Below, piece by piece: positions 15,576 through 60,483 of a stretch of DNA of 64,000 bases (position 1 is the stretch's first letter; each line of letters opens with the position of its first letter). The notes beneath the pieces were generated by a model. It ran no database searches. It had not been told where the DNA came from and was given only the letters and a program-made list of their open reading frames with translations. The DNA is taken from positions 81,468,001 through 81,532,000 of the forward strand of contig OX597826.1 of the NCBI GenBank assembly GCA_951406725.2, in the 5' to 3' direction. The translations under genes and the position numbers were made by a program. Source of the stretch: Octopus vulgaris (taxonomy: Eukaryota).

Positions 15576-15649
15576 TTAGAATAACTTAGAAAGGTTTTGG
15601 CCAGTATTGGCCCAGGCCATGTCTAACTTAATAGCACCACCTGGCGAAG

Positions 15650-16638
15650 ACCATCAATTACATTGACATTACAGAAGAGAATGTGTTGTCGTCCATTGAC
15701 GAAATAAACCCAAACTCTGCAACAGGCCCAGATGAACTCCTAACAATTCTGTTAAAAACATGCAAGAAAGCTCTTCCAGAACCACTGCAAATGCTTTTCT
15801 AGAGTTCCCTTCAATGTGGTACATTTCCTCATGCTGAAAGAAGGAATAATCTGCCCCGTCCACAAACGAGGAAGTAGAGCAGATGCTATAAACTACAGGT
15901 CGATCTCTATGACCTCACATGTGAGCAAAATCATAGAACGCATGGACCATGTACCTGGAGGAAAATAACTTGCTTACAAATACACTTTCAGAACAAGAGA
16001 GGAGACACTGATGATCCTTTGGAAGACATTTGTCCTCAGCCACTTGGACTACTGCTCCCAACTACGGTCACCACACAATATAAAGTTAACAGCAGAACTC
16101 GAAGCAATTCAAAGAAGCTACACTAAGAAGATCGTCTCAATGCAACATATCAGCTACTGGGAAAGACTGAAAGAATTAAAGCTCTTCTCCCTGGAGCGAA
16201 GGCGGGAGAGATATGCAGTGATATACATCTGGAAAATCCTGGAGGATCTTGTCCCAAACTTTGGCATTCAAAGTTACCCCAACAGCAGAACGGGGCGCCA
16301 CTGCATGGTGCCAAGAATCCCAACAACACCATCAAAATACAGGACCAGATACTGCAACAGCTTGGGTTTCAGAGAACCACAGCTCTTCAGTATCCTTCCT
16401 AAATGCCTAAGAGACCTGCATGGTGTGGATGTGGTTTTTTTAAAAACTAAACTGGATCTCTTCTTGTCAGGGGTCCCAAATGAACCTACCTCTCGGCAGG
16501 AGACACAGATGCTGGCAGCCGCATCGACCTCCCTTGTTGATCAAGTGCCACGTATCAGAGGTGGTTTCCCATACTAGTGTAGCTCATTCAACCCAGCATG
16601 GCCGCAGCCTTCGGGCTGAAACATTTTTAAGGATTTAA

Positions 16639-16684: not shown

Positions 16685-16822
16685 CTAAGTCTCTCTAAAG
16701 GAGACTACGGCAGCGGTACTGGATATTAATAGTTATCGCCAAGCTAATATGGCAGTCCATAAATATAGGACGAAAGCTGCCGCTGATTAACTCCAAGAGA
16801 CCATCGCCTTTAGCTAGCTATG
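16684..16822 (-). repeat. Truncated copy of dispersed family D (also 27130-27434 and 36525-36835)
   Basis: Shares aaggagactacggcagcggtactggatattaatagttatcgccaagct with those copies. Confidence 0.8.
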
Positions 16823-16992
16823 GCACGTGAACAAAACATTCGGGCGAGGTTGTTGCCAGTGCCGCTGGACTGACTCCTGTGCAGGTGGCACGTAAAAAAC
16901 ACCATTTCGAGTGTGGCCGTTGCCAGTACCGCCATACTGGACCTCGTGCCGGTGGCGCGTGAAAGCACCCACTACACTCTCGGTGTGGGTGC
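16820..16992 (+). mobile_element. Family B SINE fragment
   Basis: tggcacgtaaaaaacacc tandem units. Confidence 0.8.
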
Positions 16993-17475
16993 TCAAATAT
17001 AAATGAGACGAAGCACCGGGACCACTGTTCGCTAGTAGTACCAATACATATACATAAAATCACAGACGGTAAAAAAATATATATTCTAATAAAATACAAA
17101 TGGAACGGTTTATCAAAAGTTAAATATAACGACTAAAGATTCAAAACTATCAAAAAGCCAAATGGACAAATATAAAATAAAGATAAAAATAATAATAAAA
17201 TAAACGTTCACCGATTAAAAAGATTTTATCAGACAATTAAAATATTTCTAAAATTTATTAAATTTTTTTTTTTTTTTAATATTTGAAAAAGTCGTTTACT
17301 TACCTGACACAGGTACGTCCAAAGTCCACAGGTACGTCCAAAGTCCATAAGTAAGCAGTCTTCCACAGGTCAAATTCACATAGATCTTGATAAAAGCCTT
17401 TTACTCCCCTCACACATCTACGTCCGAAAGTTCACAATAAACAGATATCACCGGTCAAATTCAACATTCACATAG

Positions 17476-17559
17476 ATCTATGGCCATTTCGTCACCCCCG
17501 TAGTTTATTTACACCAAAGGGCATCACGGCGATGAGCCCCCTTCACCCCTCATCAGGAT
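17476..17559 (-). ncRNA. Type I hammerhead candidate in the left arm; the right-arm copy (19332-19406) has lost part of CTGATGA
   Basis: ATC-CTGATGA-G...TCATCGCCGT/ACGGGGGTGA-C-GAAA-TGGCCA-TA-GAT, with palindromic helix III. Confidence 0.7.
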
Positions 17560-17591
17560 AAACAAGAAACATGGACAGACGAAAACTTTTG

Positions 17592-19060
17592 TTATTTCTT
17601 TCTTACCCACAGCGGGCCAACACAGAAGGGACAATACAAAAACACGTGGGGACACATAACATGAAATAAATAAAACTGAAAATTAAAATAAAACGTGTGA
17701 TAATATGAATGGCAACATGAAAAGGATAAAGAAAGTGTGATGCTTGCCCCACGTGAAACAGCATCACTTCTTCCGTTTTATCTTTTAAATCTTGAGTCTC
17801 TCAGTCTAGCAATACTGTATTCCTTGTATGTCACATTTATCTGCTATTTTATTAATGTCCATGCTTATCCTCCGACAGTCCTCTGCTTTCTTGGATTTAG
17901 CCATTTCTTCCTTTTGTTTCTCTGACACCAGTAGACACCCGGTGCCATCCTACTGTTTGTGCAATCCTCTCATTCTACAAACTTTATATTCTCCCACGTT
18001 GTTATTTTGCCAAGGAGTTCCTCTTCTTTATCCTCTGCAATTATATAAGAATAAACTACATCACTGGGAGGCGACTGTTTTGTACATTCTGTTGAGACTG
18101 TTTTTCTTTTTCTCTGTGTAGGAGGGGAATGGGTGGGATTGGTGTCTGCGGGTGGGTGGGTGGGTGTGTATGGTCTGGGGTTCCGTTTCACCTTGTCCTT
18201 TCTTCCTTCTGCTATTGTCCACGGGTCTTCCTTTTCTTTTACTTCTTCTTCTACCTCCTCCTCTTTCTTCATCAGCTCCTCTTCACCCTTTTTCTTGGTT
18301 ATTTTCCTTTCGTAGAGGACAGTGTGCTCAAATGTGGTCTTTTTGGCCACATTTAAAACAAGGGATTCTGCCCTCGACCCATTCTCTCAGAATCAACTCA
18401 CCAACCGTTATTGTTTCTGCCAGACTTTCTAACGATTGGCCCCTCTTCTGTGGCCTGGAGGACAACTACATCCTCCCTCCTTCCGAGGAGGACAGCCGCC
18501 GCGACCTAAGCCACAGCTCTGTTCGGTGCGATTCCTTCTACCCTAATCTTGGAAGTTCTTCTTCCAAGATACGTGGCCAGAAGGACCACTTTATTCGTCT
18601 TCAGCGTGTTGGCCGCATCCCTCCTTGCCCCTTCTTCCGTCTTAAATTGGACGATCACTGTGCCATACTTAATGCCTCTTGCTAAAAATACAATGTCCCC
18701 TCTCAACTCGCCCAACGCCTTCTCAATCGTTTCGGCCTCTACGTGGCTAATCTTTCCCCCCTCTACTGAGTAAACCTTATAAACAATTGTTCTTTTAGCC
18801 ATATCTTCCATCACTTTCTGTGATGCTGACAACTTCATGCCACCACTCACCTTGCAAGCCATCTTTTGGTGTTTCTCCACGTTGGCCAAATTTCTCTCCT
18901 TTCTTCTCACCTCTGTTATTTCCACTTGGCTTCCCTTTTCCAGGCATTTGTCCATCCTGTTCACCGCGCTCAATAATTCCTCCTCCGAAGAGGATAATTC
19001 GAACCCACTCAGGTCCGAATAGAACATCTTACTTGCACGTATCACCATCTCTCAATAAAA
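17592..19060 (-). pseudogene. L1/Tx1-type ORF1 (gag-like, CCHC zinc knuckle) with no ORF2; HAL1-like non-autonomous retroelement
   Basis: ORF 18506..19048 continues past TAG and a frameshift into ..VEGRIP-CFKCGQKDHI*AHC (C-X2-C-X4-H-X4-C, 18319-18360). A Glu/Lys-rich region and a SINE-A-like tail (17592-17640) follow. Confidence 0.7.
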
Positions 19061-19990
19061 AGAGAGAAGGCATGGATGGTCAACCGCTGCAAAGCCCCCC
19101 CCCCCAAGCACAATAATACTTCAAAATAGATGTAATAAAATTGTTTGGTGTTACGGGGATTTGAAACCGGCGAGGCTAAACTACAGCCACCTGCGTGTTT
19201 AGCAATAACAATTTTTTTTTCTTTAGGAATTTTGGACTCGTCCATTGATGGGTTCGTCTTAAATTATATAAGCTTTTTATTAACAGTGTAAGCTTTTCAT
19301 AAAATTTTTGATCTGTGCGTGTTTTATGTTTATCCTGGGGTGGGGCTCATCCCTGTGATGCCCTTTGGTGTAAATAAACTACGGGGGTGACGAAATGGCC
19401 ATAGATCTATGTGAATGTTGAATTTGACCGGTGATATCTGTTTATTATGAACTTTCGGACGTAGATGTGTGAGGGGAGTAAAAGATTTTATCAAGATCTA
19501 TGTGAATTTGACCTGTGGAAGACTGCTTGCTTATGGACTTTGGACAGTACCTGTGTCAGGTAAGTAAAAGACTTTTTCAAATATTTAAAAAAAACATTTA
19601 AAAAAAAAAATTTTTAGAAATATTTTAATTGTCTGATAAAATCTTTTTAGTCGGTGGACGTTTATTTTATTATTATTTTTATCTTTATTTTATATTTGTC
19701 CATTAGGCTTTTTGATCGTTTTGAATCTGTAGTCGTTATATTTAACTTTTGATAAACCGTTCCATTTGTATTTTATTAGAATATATATATTTTTACCGTC
19801 TGTGATTTTATGTATAGGTATTATTTTCATGTGTTTGTGAACCATGGTGTTTTTTTAAATATATGATTAGATGTTTGAGGGGTGGTGCTGTATGTAAAGT
19901 CGTTGATCCAAATTCAATGTTTGTTCTATAACCAATACCTTATACGTGTATATTTTTTAAAGAGATGTAACATTACATATTTATTTTGAA

Positions 19991-20158: not shown

Positions 20159-20183
20159 CATATTTAATTAATATCGTGTTAAA

Positions 20184-20587
20184 AGGTGGCGAGCTGGCAG
20201 AGTCGTTAGCACGTCGGGCGAAATGCTTAGCGGTATTTCGTCTGCGTTACGTTGTGAGTTCAAATTCCGCCGAGGTCGACTTTGCTTTCATCCTTTCGGG
20301 GTCGATTAAATAAGTACCAGTTACGCACTGGGGTCGATGTAATCGTCTTGATACCCTATGTCTGTCCTTGTTTGTCCCCTCTGTGTTTGGCCCTTGTGGG
20401 TAATAGGGAAATGGGTATTTCGTCTGCTGTTACGTTCTGAGTTCAAATTCCGCCGAGGTTGACTTTGCCGTTCATCCTTTCGGGGTCGATTAAATAAGTA
20501 CCAGTTACGCACTGGGGTCGATATAATTGACTTAATTCATTTGTCTGTCCTCTCTGTGTTTAGTCCCTTGTGGGTAGTAAAGGAATA
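20184..20587 (+). mobile_element. Family A tRNA-SINE, tandem dimer (full-length plus 5'-truncated unit)
   Basis: A-box-like ggcgagctggcaga and B-box gttcaaatt. One 19-bp TSD, taattaatatcgtgttaaa (20165-20183 and 20588-20606), flanks both units. Confidence 0.92.
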
Positions 20588-21489
20588 TAATTAATATCGT
20601 GTTAAATAAGTACGAGATAATTAAGGAAATATAGTATACACCCTGCTGGTATAATGGTTCTCTTTTTCCGAACCGCTAGAGTACGGGGACGTAAACACAC
20701 CACTATCGTCTGTCAAGCGATGTTGGGAGACAAAAACTGTTATTCAGAGTTTCACGGACGATTGTGATGAAAACACATTTTTCATCACAACTCTCCGACG
20801 AATGTGAAACTGAGTAACATTTCGTTTGATAATTTGCAGTGTTAATAAGTGTGTGTGTGTTCACGCGCCCGGTTGCATGGGATGAACAGAATTTATTGGG
20901 GCACATTTTGCATGGCCAGACGCCATTCCTGTTGCTATGCCACACCCGTTTCCAAGCTGGAAAATATCTCCCCATCACCAGACATACGTACAGTAGTGTT
21001 TCTATATATGAACATGATCCTTTTTCGGATCTCTTTTTGTTGACTCAATTGTTTGTTACGTGAATGTTTGAAATTTATATAAAATAAAGGGATAATCTGT
21101 TCCCACCAACGCTCAAACTCCATAGAAAAAGAATGAAAGGATGATGTCTTTATGGCCATCCATCACTAGCAAATACACAAACATCTATGAGTGTGTGTGT
21201 GTGTGTGTGTGCGTGCGTGCGTGCATTTTCTGTTTGTTTTAACATGTCGATGCTTATTGTAAATAAACTGCTTCTTAACATAAACAGCATAGTTTTGTCT
21301 CCATGAAAGAACATTTGGCTTGTTCGTGGTTTGAACAAGATGAGGAAAGACCTTGGCCTGTTAAATAAAATGGCATCTCTAATTTGAAAACTGCACAAAT
21401 GAAGATCATCTGGCTGTAAATTGCCTCTGCTAATGAAATATGTCCTGATCCATGCTAGCATTGAAAAACAGACGTTAAACGAATGAACG

Positions 21490-36524: not shown

Positions 36525-36835
36525 TATTTCTAAATTTTTCTAAAGGAGACCACGGCAGCGGTACTGGATATCAATAGTTATCGCCAAGCTAACATGGCAG
36601 TCCAGATAAATAGGACGGATGCTGTCGTTCATTAGCTCCAAGAGGCCATCGGCTCTAGATATCTATGTAACACACAAACCCTGACCTCCCCTGTTCGAAG
36701 GTTGTAATGGACACAGGTTTGTTTGTCACATAACTAACTAGAGGTGATGGCCTATTGGAGCTAATCAACGGCAGCATTCGTCCTATTTTTCTGGACTGCC
36801 GTGTTAGCTTGGCGATAACTATTAATATCAGTGTA
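36525..36835. repeat. Family D inverted pair with the hammerhead hairpin missing at the junction
   Basis: 36682-36712 is the reverse complement of about 27292-27322, and the two arms mirror each other. Confidence 0.8.
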
Positions 36836-41709: not shown

Positions 41710-42310
41710 TACGTGCGAGAAACACGGGGCCGACCTGCCCGAGATGCGCTCAGAGCGACGAAACCGTCCTGCACGCACTCGTACAGTGTCCAACCATTTC
41801 CGACCTGTGGGCCTATGTCGAACGACTGTTATCGCGTGTGGGACGAGTCAGTTTATCAACCGAGTCTATCGTGAATATTGTCGCGCCTCGTTTCTTGAAA
41901 CGAGAAGGAAGAGCCATTTTCATCGTACTTGTTGCTATGGCGAAAGAATGTGTATGGTGGACGCATCTGAAAGGTCTAGAGACAAACACTTTCCTCTCTG
42001 GTGAATCTCTCATCAGCTTCTTCAAGTATCACTTGAAGAGGAAGGTGAGAGTAGAGAGAGAAGTTTTGTCTAGCGAATGTTTCAAAAAAAGATGGGTGAA
42101 TGTAGCAAGGATGGTACGTGTGAATGACGGAGCCACCTTGAGCATGATTCTATGAACCAGAAAAAGGAAGGAAAAAGGAGAGTCTCTTATTGTAATATGT
42201 TTTTAGTATGACATTATTGCCCGAGGTTACCGTGGTCTTCTCCGTATTGACCCCTCGGAGCAGTTTCAAAGCTATTTGCATTTCTATTTTCTTCGATTTC
42301 CTTGCCATAT
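41710..42310 (+). mobile_element. Tx1/L1-clade LINE ORF2 C-terminal zinc finger and 3' UTR
   Basis: CPRCAQSDETVLHALVQCP..W (zf-RVT-like) and AKECVWW. Confidence 0.85.
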
Positions 42311-59274: not shown

Positions 59275-60483
59275 TCTTTGAGAAAAAGAGGGGACGATAC
59301 GAGGACAGAAAAAACAAACATTGGGGCCAGGGTATCGAATGAGACGAAACATATGAATAAACAAACAATTAAAATATATACAATTAAATGAGAATGCGTG
59401 ATTAACAAAAAATGAAGCGGAGGACGCGGTTGACCCCACAAACCACAGACTCACACTGAAGACTTTGCTTTCTCCTTTTTTACATTCTCGATTAAACAGG
59501 TTCTTTCACTCGCAACATACTTGCTGTAGACTTCCATCTTTTACGAAACACACTTTGCGACAGGCATTTCTTCTCCAGCCTTATTTTCCGTTTCATGTGG
59601 AAAACGAAAAAGTCGATTAGCTCGAGACTGGAGATAAACATGCCTGTTGCAATTCCTTTCACTCTCGAGAAAGTTTGGCCCCACTATGTCAATGGTACTT
59701 TAGCTATTATGGCAATATAAACAATAAATTTGTCCTTGGCAAGATTTGAACTCCCAAAGCATAGTCAGAACAAATACCACAAGGCATTTTGTATGACGCT
59801 TTACCAGTGATACTAATTCTTAGCCCCATGAATAAACATATCTGATCAGAACCCGACTTTCCCAAACTCAGAAGAACATACATCTTATTCACATAAAATT
59901 TCTGACAAGCTGGCTTACGCTAATTTTCTAAAATTATCAAAATTTTCTCAAGTGTCAATTTAATTTTCAAGTTCTTTATTCATGCTCCCGTTTTAAGAAC
60001 ACTTAATAATAAAAAATTGGATGGATTCATTAGAAATAGTGTCATATTTAGTTTAGTCAAACTTTTTCTTCCCAACAGAGAAATACACTATTTTGGCATA
60101 GTTTCAATTATTATTTGGTAATAAACCGAAAATTTTTTGAATAAAAGCTTTTTTTGTAACTAAATTACATTTTTTCCCTCTTCTGGTTTTGTTTCTTGTA
60201 ATGTTTTGCGCTGTCCATAAGACTTTCAAAAACTTCAGCCTACCATTATTACATTATAATTTTAATATCTTTACCACATTCTTTCTATTGTGTATTTCCT
60301 GTTCTTGGTTCTCTTTTCACTTTAATTGTAATATTTAATAAATATGTTTCTTTAAATAACGAAACAAAGACCCTTGAGGTGTTCTGAAATCGTTTCTTTT
60401 TTTCAAATTCAAATCAATATGATATATATATAATTGATTAAGTAAATTGCAAAATAATAATAAAAACGTATATATTCCTCAAA

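Follow-up and report, generated by a model that had tools for sequence, protein, structure and literature searches.

For Penelope-like elements (PLEs), inverted pseudo-LTRs (pLTRs), tails and a start site inside the pLTR have been described, as has one PLE with a CCHC ORF upstream (PMC8557442). In vitro, a PLE reverse transcriptase (RT) was reported to use two internal start sites, with uncleaved RNA as the main substrate (PMC11167929), and transduction by PLEs has been reviewed (PMC6431247). Among non-LTR elements, Tx1 families are reported to target mariner, piggyBac, Harbinger and LTR elements (PMC4494074). L1-Tx1 and Penelope families are listed in the octopus repeat annotation, in the available part of which ORF1 and nesting are unmentioned (PMC13282606). 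Among the papers listed by literature searches outside Repbase and subscription journals, titles and the openings of abstracts described neither an ORF1-only family that seeks start sites nor a LINE borne by a PLE.

The locus described here lies in a window of 64,000 nucleotides of Octopus vulgaris DNA. An earlier note on this DNA had placed a composite element at 17043 to 19822, with two arms of more than 500 bp and high identity. The core of this structure stood, but the element proved to be larger, with the right arm running to ∼19955 and further PLE sequence at 16989 to 17013 (Table 1). Alignment of the inverted arms (17043 to 17590 and 19301 to 19822) confirmed their length and likeness: of 517 aligned bases, 494 matched and 23 did not (95.6% identity, ungapped), and the alignment had 36 gap columns. 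The ∼1.5-kb ORF1-like pseudogene with a zinc knuckle that had been noted between the arms was present on the minus strand, and RT, integrase and recombinase genes were indeed absent from this interval. The tail of the gag-like gene abuts the left-arm breakpoint at 17590/17591 with no target-site duplication (TSD), as had been claimed. The ∼200 bp taken for a possible PLE ORF end did belong to a PLE, but only 26 bp (19123 to 19148) encode the ORF end and the remainder is 3' UTR.

Table 1. Features of the composite locus, by position in the window
Feature	Position	Strand	Basis
Outer remnant of inverted arm: PLE sequence after the first tail site	16989..17013	-	25-mer match
Unrelated filler, 29 bp; ∼140 bp of arm absent there	17014..17042	.	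Comparison with L028/L030/L039
Left (inverted) arm: PLE pLTR from the presumed transcription start on	17043..17590	-	Identity to 19301-19822; genomic matches
Type I hammerhead lacking the base of stem II: CUGAUGA 17556-17550, GAAA 17490-17487; cut predicted after 17479	17467..17568	-	32-copy alignment, folds, pair counts, L239
3' UTR and tail of G (ORF1-only element); tail motif 17618-17591 common to autonomous LINE and a SINE	17591..17790	-	
Decayed ORF1 with a CCHC knuckle (18360-18319) and two RRM-like domains; 3' end approximate	17765..19048	-	Six-frame translation, tblastn against intact relatives, fold of intact relative
G 5' leader, joined head-to-head to PLE piece	19049..19122	-	Alignment to L041, L213
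PLE RT/GIY-YIG ORF, last codons; family stop codon position 19146-19148	19123..19148	+	Upstream ORF in L187-L211, 806-aa relative in L239
PLE 3' UTR; TATA-like TATATAAG at 19265-19272	19149..19293	+	Sequence, junction census
Right (direct) arm: PLE pLTR and tail; hammerhead 19324-19415, core lost at 19335-19341	19294..19955	+	

In four runs that were mapped, the inner junction was bridged by a contig of organism A (18965 to 19384) and by a contig of organism B, and the tail junction was bridged by an organism B contig (17498 to 18126). Organism C covered parts of the locus with no bridge listed, and no listed piece from any organism spanned the whole stretch. As each of the two junctions is bridged by contigs from a second species, misassembly was ruled out; the locus is real, and more than one species has it.

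By sequence comparison, the arms are the pLTRs of a GIY-YIG PLE with a type I hammerhead. A search of the 2.8-Gb genome with the arm gave at least 51 matches (40 of 204 candidates scored). The PLE family unit spans 19123 to ∼19955, ending at (TA)n, and longer copies (L187 to L211) run upstream into the end of a GIY-YIG-like ORF. In a relative at L239, RT motifs and a GIY-YIG-like C terminus were recognised by eye in an open frame of 806 aa. The PLE ORF had no match in Pfam, and against the PDB it gave only a weak match to an intron endonuclease (E = 0.58). The best named PLE relative was from Argonauta, and we take the element to be of the canonical EN+ type (C-terminal GIY-YIG) and, by its motifs, presumably Neptune-like. 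An inverted partner was detected in 4 of 18 arm loci (L028, L030, L039 and L040). In a young PLE subfamily the tails end at ∼+618 and ∼+750, and inverted pairs use both sites; the left arm in the window likewise extends 25 bp beyond the first tail site, and the same 25-mer lies directly 3' of the tail end in L028, L030, L037 and L039. This beyond-tail sequence is absent from the right arm, so the idea that the left arm is a mere copy of the right was rejected. Terminal repeats of a DNA transposon (TIRs) or of a DIRS element (ITRs) were rejected as identities for the arms, which occur singly and run into the PLE ORF.

In the arm tree, the two window arms were 94.5% identical to each other, with a shared stem of 0.067, while the other inverted pairs checked were ∼86 to 91% identical. 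Their root-to-tip length of ∼0.10 equals the age of the PLE family. As the arms are closer than other pairs and yet as old as the family, later gene conversion is the simplest account, and the arms were probably homogenised in this way. A splice-donor-like CAG/GTAAGT was observed within the pLTR at 19560 (plus strand) and a degenerate 90-bp tandem repeat just 3' of the hammerhead (19403 to 19580). Recent segmental duplicates of PLE inverted structures were seen at L314 to L317 (C28:9.3-11.1 Mb) and at L200/L201 (C20:16.42 Mb).

The hammerhead was established by alignment of copies rather than by Rfam, none of whose hammerhead families gave a match, whether a gathering or an E-value threshold was applied. 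Across the 32 copies in the alignment, the order was stem I, CUGAUGA, a long stem II, GAAA, a palindromic AUGGCCAU and a cut after AUA. Pairing was maintained in 89% of cells, compared to 28 to 55% for slid controls. Covariation within the family was not above shuffles, which is expected since the copies decay neutrally; in the related PLE at L239 the fold is kept, with changes in both stem I and stem II that compensate each other within the stem. The earlier note had described an intact left hammerhead and a right one with its core partly deleted. The right arm does lack the CUGAUGA core, but the left copy is not intact: it retains CUGAUGA, GAAA and AUA, and like the right copy it lacks the 5 nt on the 3' side of basal stem II. 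No hammerhead fold was obtained for the left window copy (z = −0.70). Judged from the alignment, neither window hammerhead is intact and both are defective.

The insert, referred to here as G, is identified by homology as a decayed ORF1-only copy, with two RRM-like domains and a CCHC knuckle, of an L1/Tx1-type LINE derivative. A search with the G protein detected at least 130 matches (127 of 13,773 candidates scored), many of which had open frames. Head-to-tail arrays of at least three ∼1.7-kb units, with no RT between them, were present in 19 of 20 stretches around open-frame matches. An intact ORF encodes 472 aa, and a structural model of an intact relative (mean pLDDT of 59.8, with a core of ∼75 to 89) matched tandem-RRM proteins. 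Phylogenetic analysis of 50 ORF1 pieces, reduced from 91 by removal of near-duplicates, grouped 35 G rows in one clade (99/97) that was separate from the ORF1 rows of LINEs. The ORF pieces of the window had no Pfam match, and a word-indexed protein search found no relative of protein P0001; a profile search with P0001 found 1348 proteins at E values of up to 0.001. The nearest G relatives of the window copy were ∼80% identical by BLAST (88.6% ungapped).

The window copy is now dead, with a stop at 18508 to 18506, a frameshift near 18448 and a further stop within the CCHC knuckle. Its leader is ∼50 nt shorter than those of full-length copies and the upstream duplication is absent; duplications of the type left by target-primed reverse transcription (TPRT) were detected at other G copies. 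Most of the G copies examined lie in mariner, piggyBac, SINEs or each other and have no hammerhead arm. G resembles HAL1 in having an ORF1 homologous to that of an autonomous LINE, no ORF2 and a common 3' tail. An LTR or DIRS gag element was rejected, as arms occur without G, G occurs without arms and the partner is an APE-RT LINE. Neither is the locus a non-LTR retrozyme, the arms being inverted, single and continuous with the PLE ORF, with no tandem hammerhead units. Young head-to-tail ORF1-only arrays with intact ORFs of up to ∼470 to 500 aa were observed at L121 to L140 (C8:32.266-32.281 Mb; C14:37.73-37.76 Mb); these mix subfamilies and sometimes full LINEs, with each unit at the 5' end of the next.

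The tail of G was found at the ends of 19 of 30 LINE loci detected by a zf-RVT search, in a tail listing of 20 rows of which one was a SINE tail. Full-length LINEs encode an ORF1 that is 30 to 39% identical to that of G (best E value of 2e-43) and an ORF2 of 1130 aa with an APE-RT-zf-RVT arrangement. Pfam matches were to Exo_endo_phos, RVT_1 and zf-RVT, and to zf-CCHC in ORF1, and a look-alike was of the ZCCHC3-type RNA-binding kind (0.90). Domain content (APE, RT and zf-RVT, with an RRM and CCHC ORF1) would place this partner LINE in the L1/Tx1 type. SINE copies that end in the G/LINE tail, partly in tandem, occur in the window at 20180 to 20600 and also at ∼25880, 49755 and 52713, and these SINEs were likely mobilised by the same ORF2. 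Other repeats in the window included remnants similar to the C terminus of the partner LINE ORF2 (41736 to 42122 and 59504 to 59668; 51% and 49%), fragments of another non-LTR RT at 15635 to 16580 (plus strand) with a 202-codon open stretch at 15969 to 16577, and a short repeat at 16700 to 16822 with direct and inverted copies 20 kb away (36545 to 36667 and 36729 to 36829). A tandem second LINE family, with a 5.4-kb spacing, a homologous ORF1 and a different tail, was observed at L174 to L176 (C2:73.04-73.07 Mb).

Composites of a PLE and a passenger were detected at other loci. The G tail was joined to a pLTR of the window subfamily at positions equivalent to 19294 to 19317 in eight loci (the window, L041, L042, L214, L215, L216, L212 and L235). 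Identical junctions were common to L214, L215 and L235 and, separately, to L216 and L212. Genome-wide pattern searches for the two commonest junction types gave only 3 and 2 matches (controls, 0 and 1), so that the composites are rare events. A recurring ribozyme-plus-gag element, one of the possibilities raised in the earlier note, was upheld insofar as the composite recurs, but there is no self-standing family, the ribozyme belongs to the PLE and G mostly occurs free of arms. L213, of which the 5' side only was available, consisted of the PLE ORF end, a TATA-like box, target bases and then G. The window layout is repeated at L212 (C10), with an inverted pLTR, tail and G placed head-to-head with the 3' part of a PLE. 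At L314 the same architecture was found in a third PLE subfamily, with the duplication visible on the direct arm, as also in L318; the four near-identical segmental copies of L314 on C28 were counted once. The inverted architecture was therefore present at two independent loci besides the window.

A full LINE was found in the pLTR of the young PLE at L263 (C25) and L269 (C11), with a duplication of 16 to 17 bp. These loci, on different chromosomes, were 98.3% identical over 7.6 kb, and their LINEs were mutually nearest among the loci compared (98.7% versus at most 97.2%). They differed in 5' truncation, inverted arm, tail site (+749 and +618) and 3' flank. On this comparison, the pair bears the mark of a single nested master that was copied twice by PLE action.

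The upstream promoter was kept in none of the eight loci with a junction of the G tail to an arm of the window PLE subfamily, compared to retention of the host flank in 6 of 7 mariner/piggyBac insertions for which the 5' side was read; as 5 of the 8 were found through the arm, PLE body or junction and not through full-length G, this contrast is partly due to ascertainment. For near-full-length G only, the promoter was kept in 0 of 3 junction loci. The G copies of the window, L041 and L042 grouped together (100/98) and that of L213 fell in another clade. Arms linked to G occur in both main PLE clades, which together with the differing G lineages indicated that the pLTR site was hit several times.

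We favour, with a probability of about 0.6, a nested composite in which G inserted at the PLE start site and the PLE RT copied the chimera. The LINE ORF2 would mobilise G in trans through the common tail, as the tail and targets suggest, and would insert it at the presumed PLE transcription start in the pLTR. The PLE promoter would then transcribe G, its tail, the pLTR and onward as a chimeric RNA. Priming at the first tail site would yield the direct arm (19955 back to 19123), and priming at the second, further site would yield the inverted arm with G, almost to the RNA 5' end. The promoter and upstream duplication would be missing because the inverted-arm copy stops near this 5' end. The PLE RT would place the chimeric copy at its site as an inverted pair. 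As a point against this scheme, its two priming steps are carried over from in vitro experiments with a lizard PLE, probably of another clade.

Evidence for a copied composite comes from the PLE and passenger composites with PLE-type ends at several loci and from the 12- to 22-bp duplications that related PLEs show at the corresponding point of the pLTR. Against it count the lack of a duplication at the window locus, a source copy that was not found (the nearest G being at ∼80% by BLAST) and the added gene-conversion step needed for the extra closeness of the window arms. An unlikely history is one in which G inserted in place, by TPRT into the left arm of an inverted PLE pair that had already formed, with later deletion of the duplication and of an upstream piece of the arm. 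Independent hits on the pLTR site by different G lineages (window/L041/L042 versus L213), on arms from both PLE clades, would suit such an insertion, as would the other deletion in the left arm (17014 to 17042). However, exactly the upstream duplication would have to be deleted, with the deletion ending within ∼50 nt of the G 5' end, L212 has the same lack, and G would find no attracting promoter in an inverted arm that begins only at the transcription start.

The earlier note had proposed that an ORF1-only RNA was captured by the PLE RT through template switching at the inversion junction; the PLE arms and the ORF1-only passenger were borne out, but a switch is not needed because G and its parent LINE are found inserted with TSDs at this pLTR position while the PLE upstream is intact (L263, L269, L314 and L318, and L213 for the 5' side only). 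In a form moved to the tail junction, with the RT reaching the 5' end of the pLTR RNA and jumping to the 3' end of a free G RNA, capture would yield exactly G-tail-pLTR from the start site, with neither duplication nor promoter, and solo pLTR 5' ends do cluster at the start site. The insertions with TSDs and the recurrence of identical junctions at 3 and 2 loci make this jump improbable. It is more improbable still that the locus represents a non-autonomous PLE family in its own right, with a gag-like ORF in place of the RT and a hammerhead of its own. Several G-pLTR units do have common junctions and end at PLE tails, and one described PLE combines a hammerhead with a CCHC ORF upstream (Chlamys-2_cBra; PMC8557442). 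Nevertheless, the two commonest junctions had only 3 and 2 matches genome-wide; junctions, G lineages and arm lineages vary between loci; most G copies examined have no pLTR; and the present sample points to the G-pLTR units as a handful of polyphyletic events.

The sequences that follow G/LINE tails were 5' leaders of mariner/piggyBac transposases (identified by Pfam), SINEs, G/LINE 5' ends, other repeats and PLE pLTRs, the latter from three subfamilies. Duplications of 12 to 22 bp flank many G/LINE copies. A further 40 LINE loci gave 37 rows, of which 14 had a clear duplication, some exact at 5'-truncated copies. Within the PLE of the window, TATATAAG lies 29 bp upstream of the commonest G junction position (19294). 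The frequency of such boxes was scored for 26 sites, representing 19 targets. Of these sites, 14 came from the duplication survey and 12 from the further LINE loci, from which one site in a microsatellite, one inside an array and one row that was not a LINE had been left out. TATAWAWR, with up to one mismatch at −35 to −25, was present in 7 of the 19 targets, compared to expectations of 2.5 by random windows (P = 0.007) and 2.4 by shuffles (P = 0.005), with the position window picked after the data were seen; two duplication starts were set by eye, which did not affect the count. A universal TATA rule was rejected, as the motif was absent from 12 of 19 targets at one mismatch. No common base at the nick was fixed across the 26 sites, and LINE/G subfamilies tended to repeat targets in the ORF1 tree. 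As evidence separate from the TATA scoring, 11 of 24 pLTR loci of the young PLE subfamily begin between −16 and +13 of the LINE insertion site, the others beginning far upstream or downstream, and the clustered 5' ends centre ∼30 bp after TTTAAAAG. This cluster is the natural mark of the presumed PLE RNA start.

We tentatively propose, at clearly less than even odds, that the LINE and its ORF1-only parasites choose sites by position and not by sequence. They would be steered to RNA polymerase II starts ∼30 bp after a TATA box, stealing the promoters of unrelated transposons, blocking the host transcript at its first bases, stacking arrays on their own 5' ends and riding PLEs. The result would be a parasite system of three layers, in which the ORF1 protein is the candidate targeting factor. 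Start-site targeting is the bold and unproven part of the account. Several arrays begin ∼28 bp after TATAAAG inside the ORF1-like coding sequence of an older relative (L121:4440-4500; L125:2185-2400), where a cryptic TATA may have attracted them. One G clade occupies a fixed internal position of a different SINE (L093, L095, L096, L098, L099, L108, L109, L113, L114, L118 and L120) and does not fit the TATA rule. At L052, L053 and L054, G lies at unrelated sites with mariner start-site bases at its own 5' end, as though a mariner promoter had driven its transcription before it moved.

The copied composites would provide genomic evidence that a PLE RT copies any sequence lying between its start site and its tail, even an entire LINE of 5 kb, and that both tail priming sites are used in PLE inverted pairs. 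The analysis also revealed an ORF1-only family that is abundant and young and that, with no enzyme of its own, keeps its ORFs intact. If landing is set by transcription starts, this would be an animal LINE that targets by position and serves as a natural brake on other transposons, and there would be a testable reason for ORF1-only elements to keep their ORF.

HeT-A of Drosophila is a gag-only non-LTR element that, like G, forms head-to-tail arrays, uses its neighbour's promoter and borrows an RT. G differs from it in being non-telomeric, in making target-site duplications and in being of the L1/Tx1 and not the jockey type. The Dictyostelium non-LTR element TRE5-A has an insertion position set relative to the transcription start and targets Pol III genes, whereas the G/LINE sites resemble TATA-type Pol II promoters that belong to transposons. 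With canonical EN+ PLEs, the PLE of the window shares a type I hammerhead pLTR, 5' truncation, an inverted 5' copy, a two-position tail and (TA)n neighbours (PMC8557442, PMC11167929), but it has a LINE-derived passenger at its start site and an unusually long stem II. With non-LTR retrozymes and Terminons, the points in common are a type I hammerhead of PLE origin and the movement of extra cargo by a PLE RT (10.64898/2026.07.22.740005, PMC6431247); the window composite differs in having no tandem ribozyme monomers, in not being telomeric and in carrying another retrotransposon as cargo. HAL1 (half-L1) is likewise non-autonomous and encodes ORF1p only (PMC5753468), whereas G is an invertebrate element with an RRM-RRM-CCHC ORF1, many intact young copies in head-to-tail arrays and recurrent targets. 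Tx1 elements (Tx1L in Tx1D; crocodilian Tx1-Mar and Tx1-9_AMi) are similar as APE-RT LINEs with non-autonomous partners at fixed positions in transposable elements, with one sequence target per family that is ascribed to the endonuclease (PMC4494074). In contrast, related G/LINE elements use many unrelated targets with no common nick sequence, often ∼30 bp after a TATA-like box.
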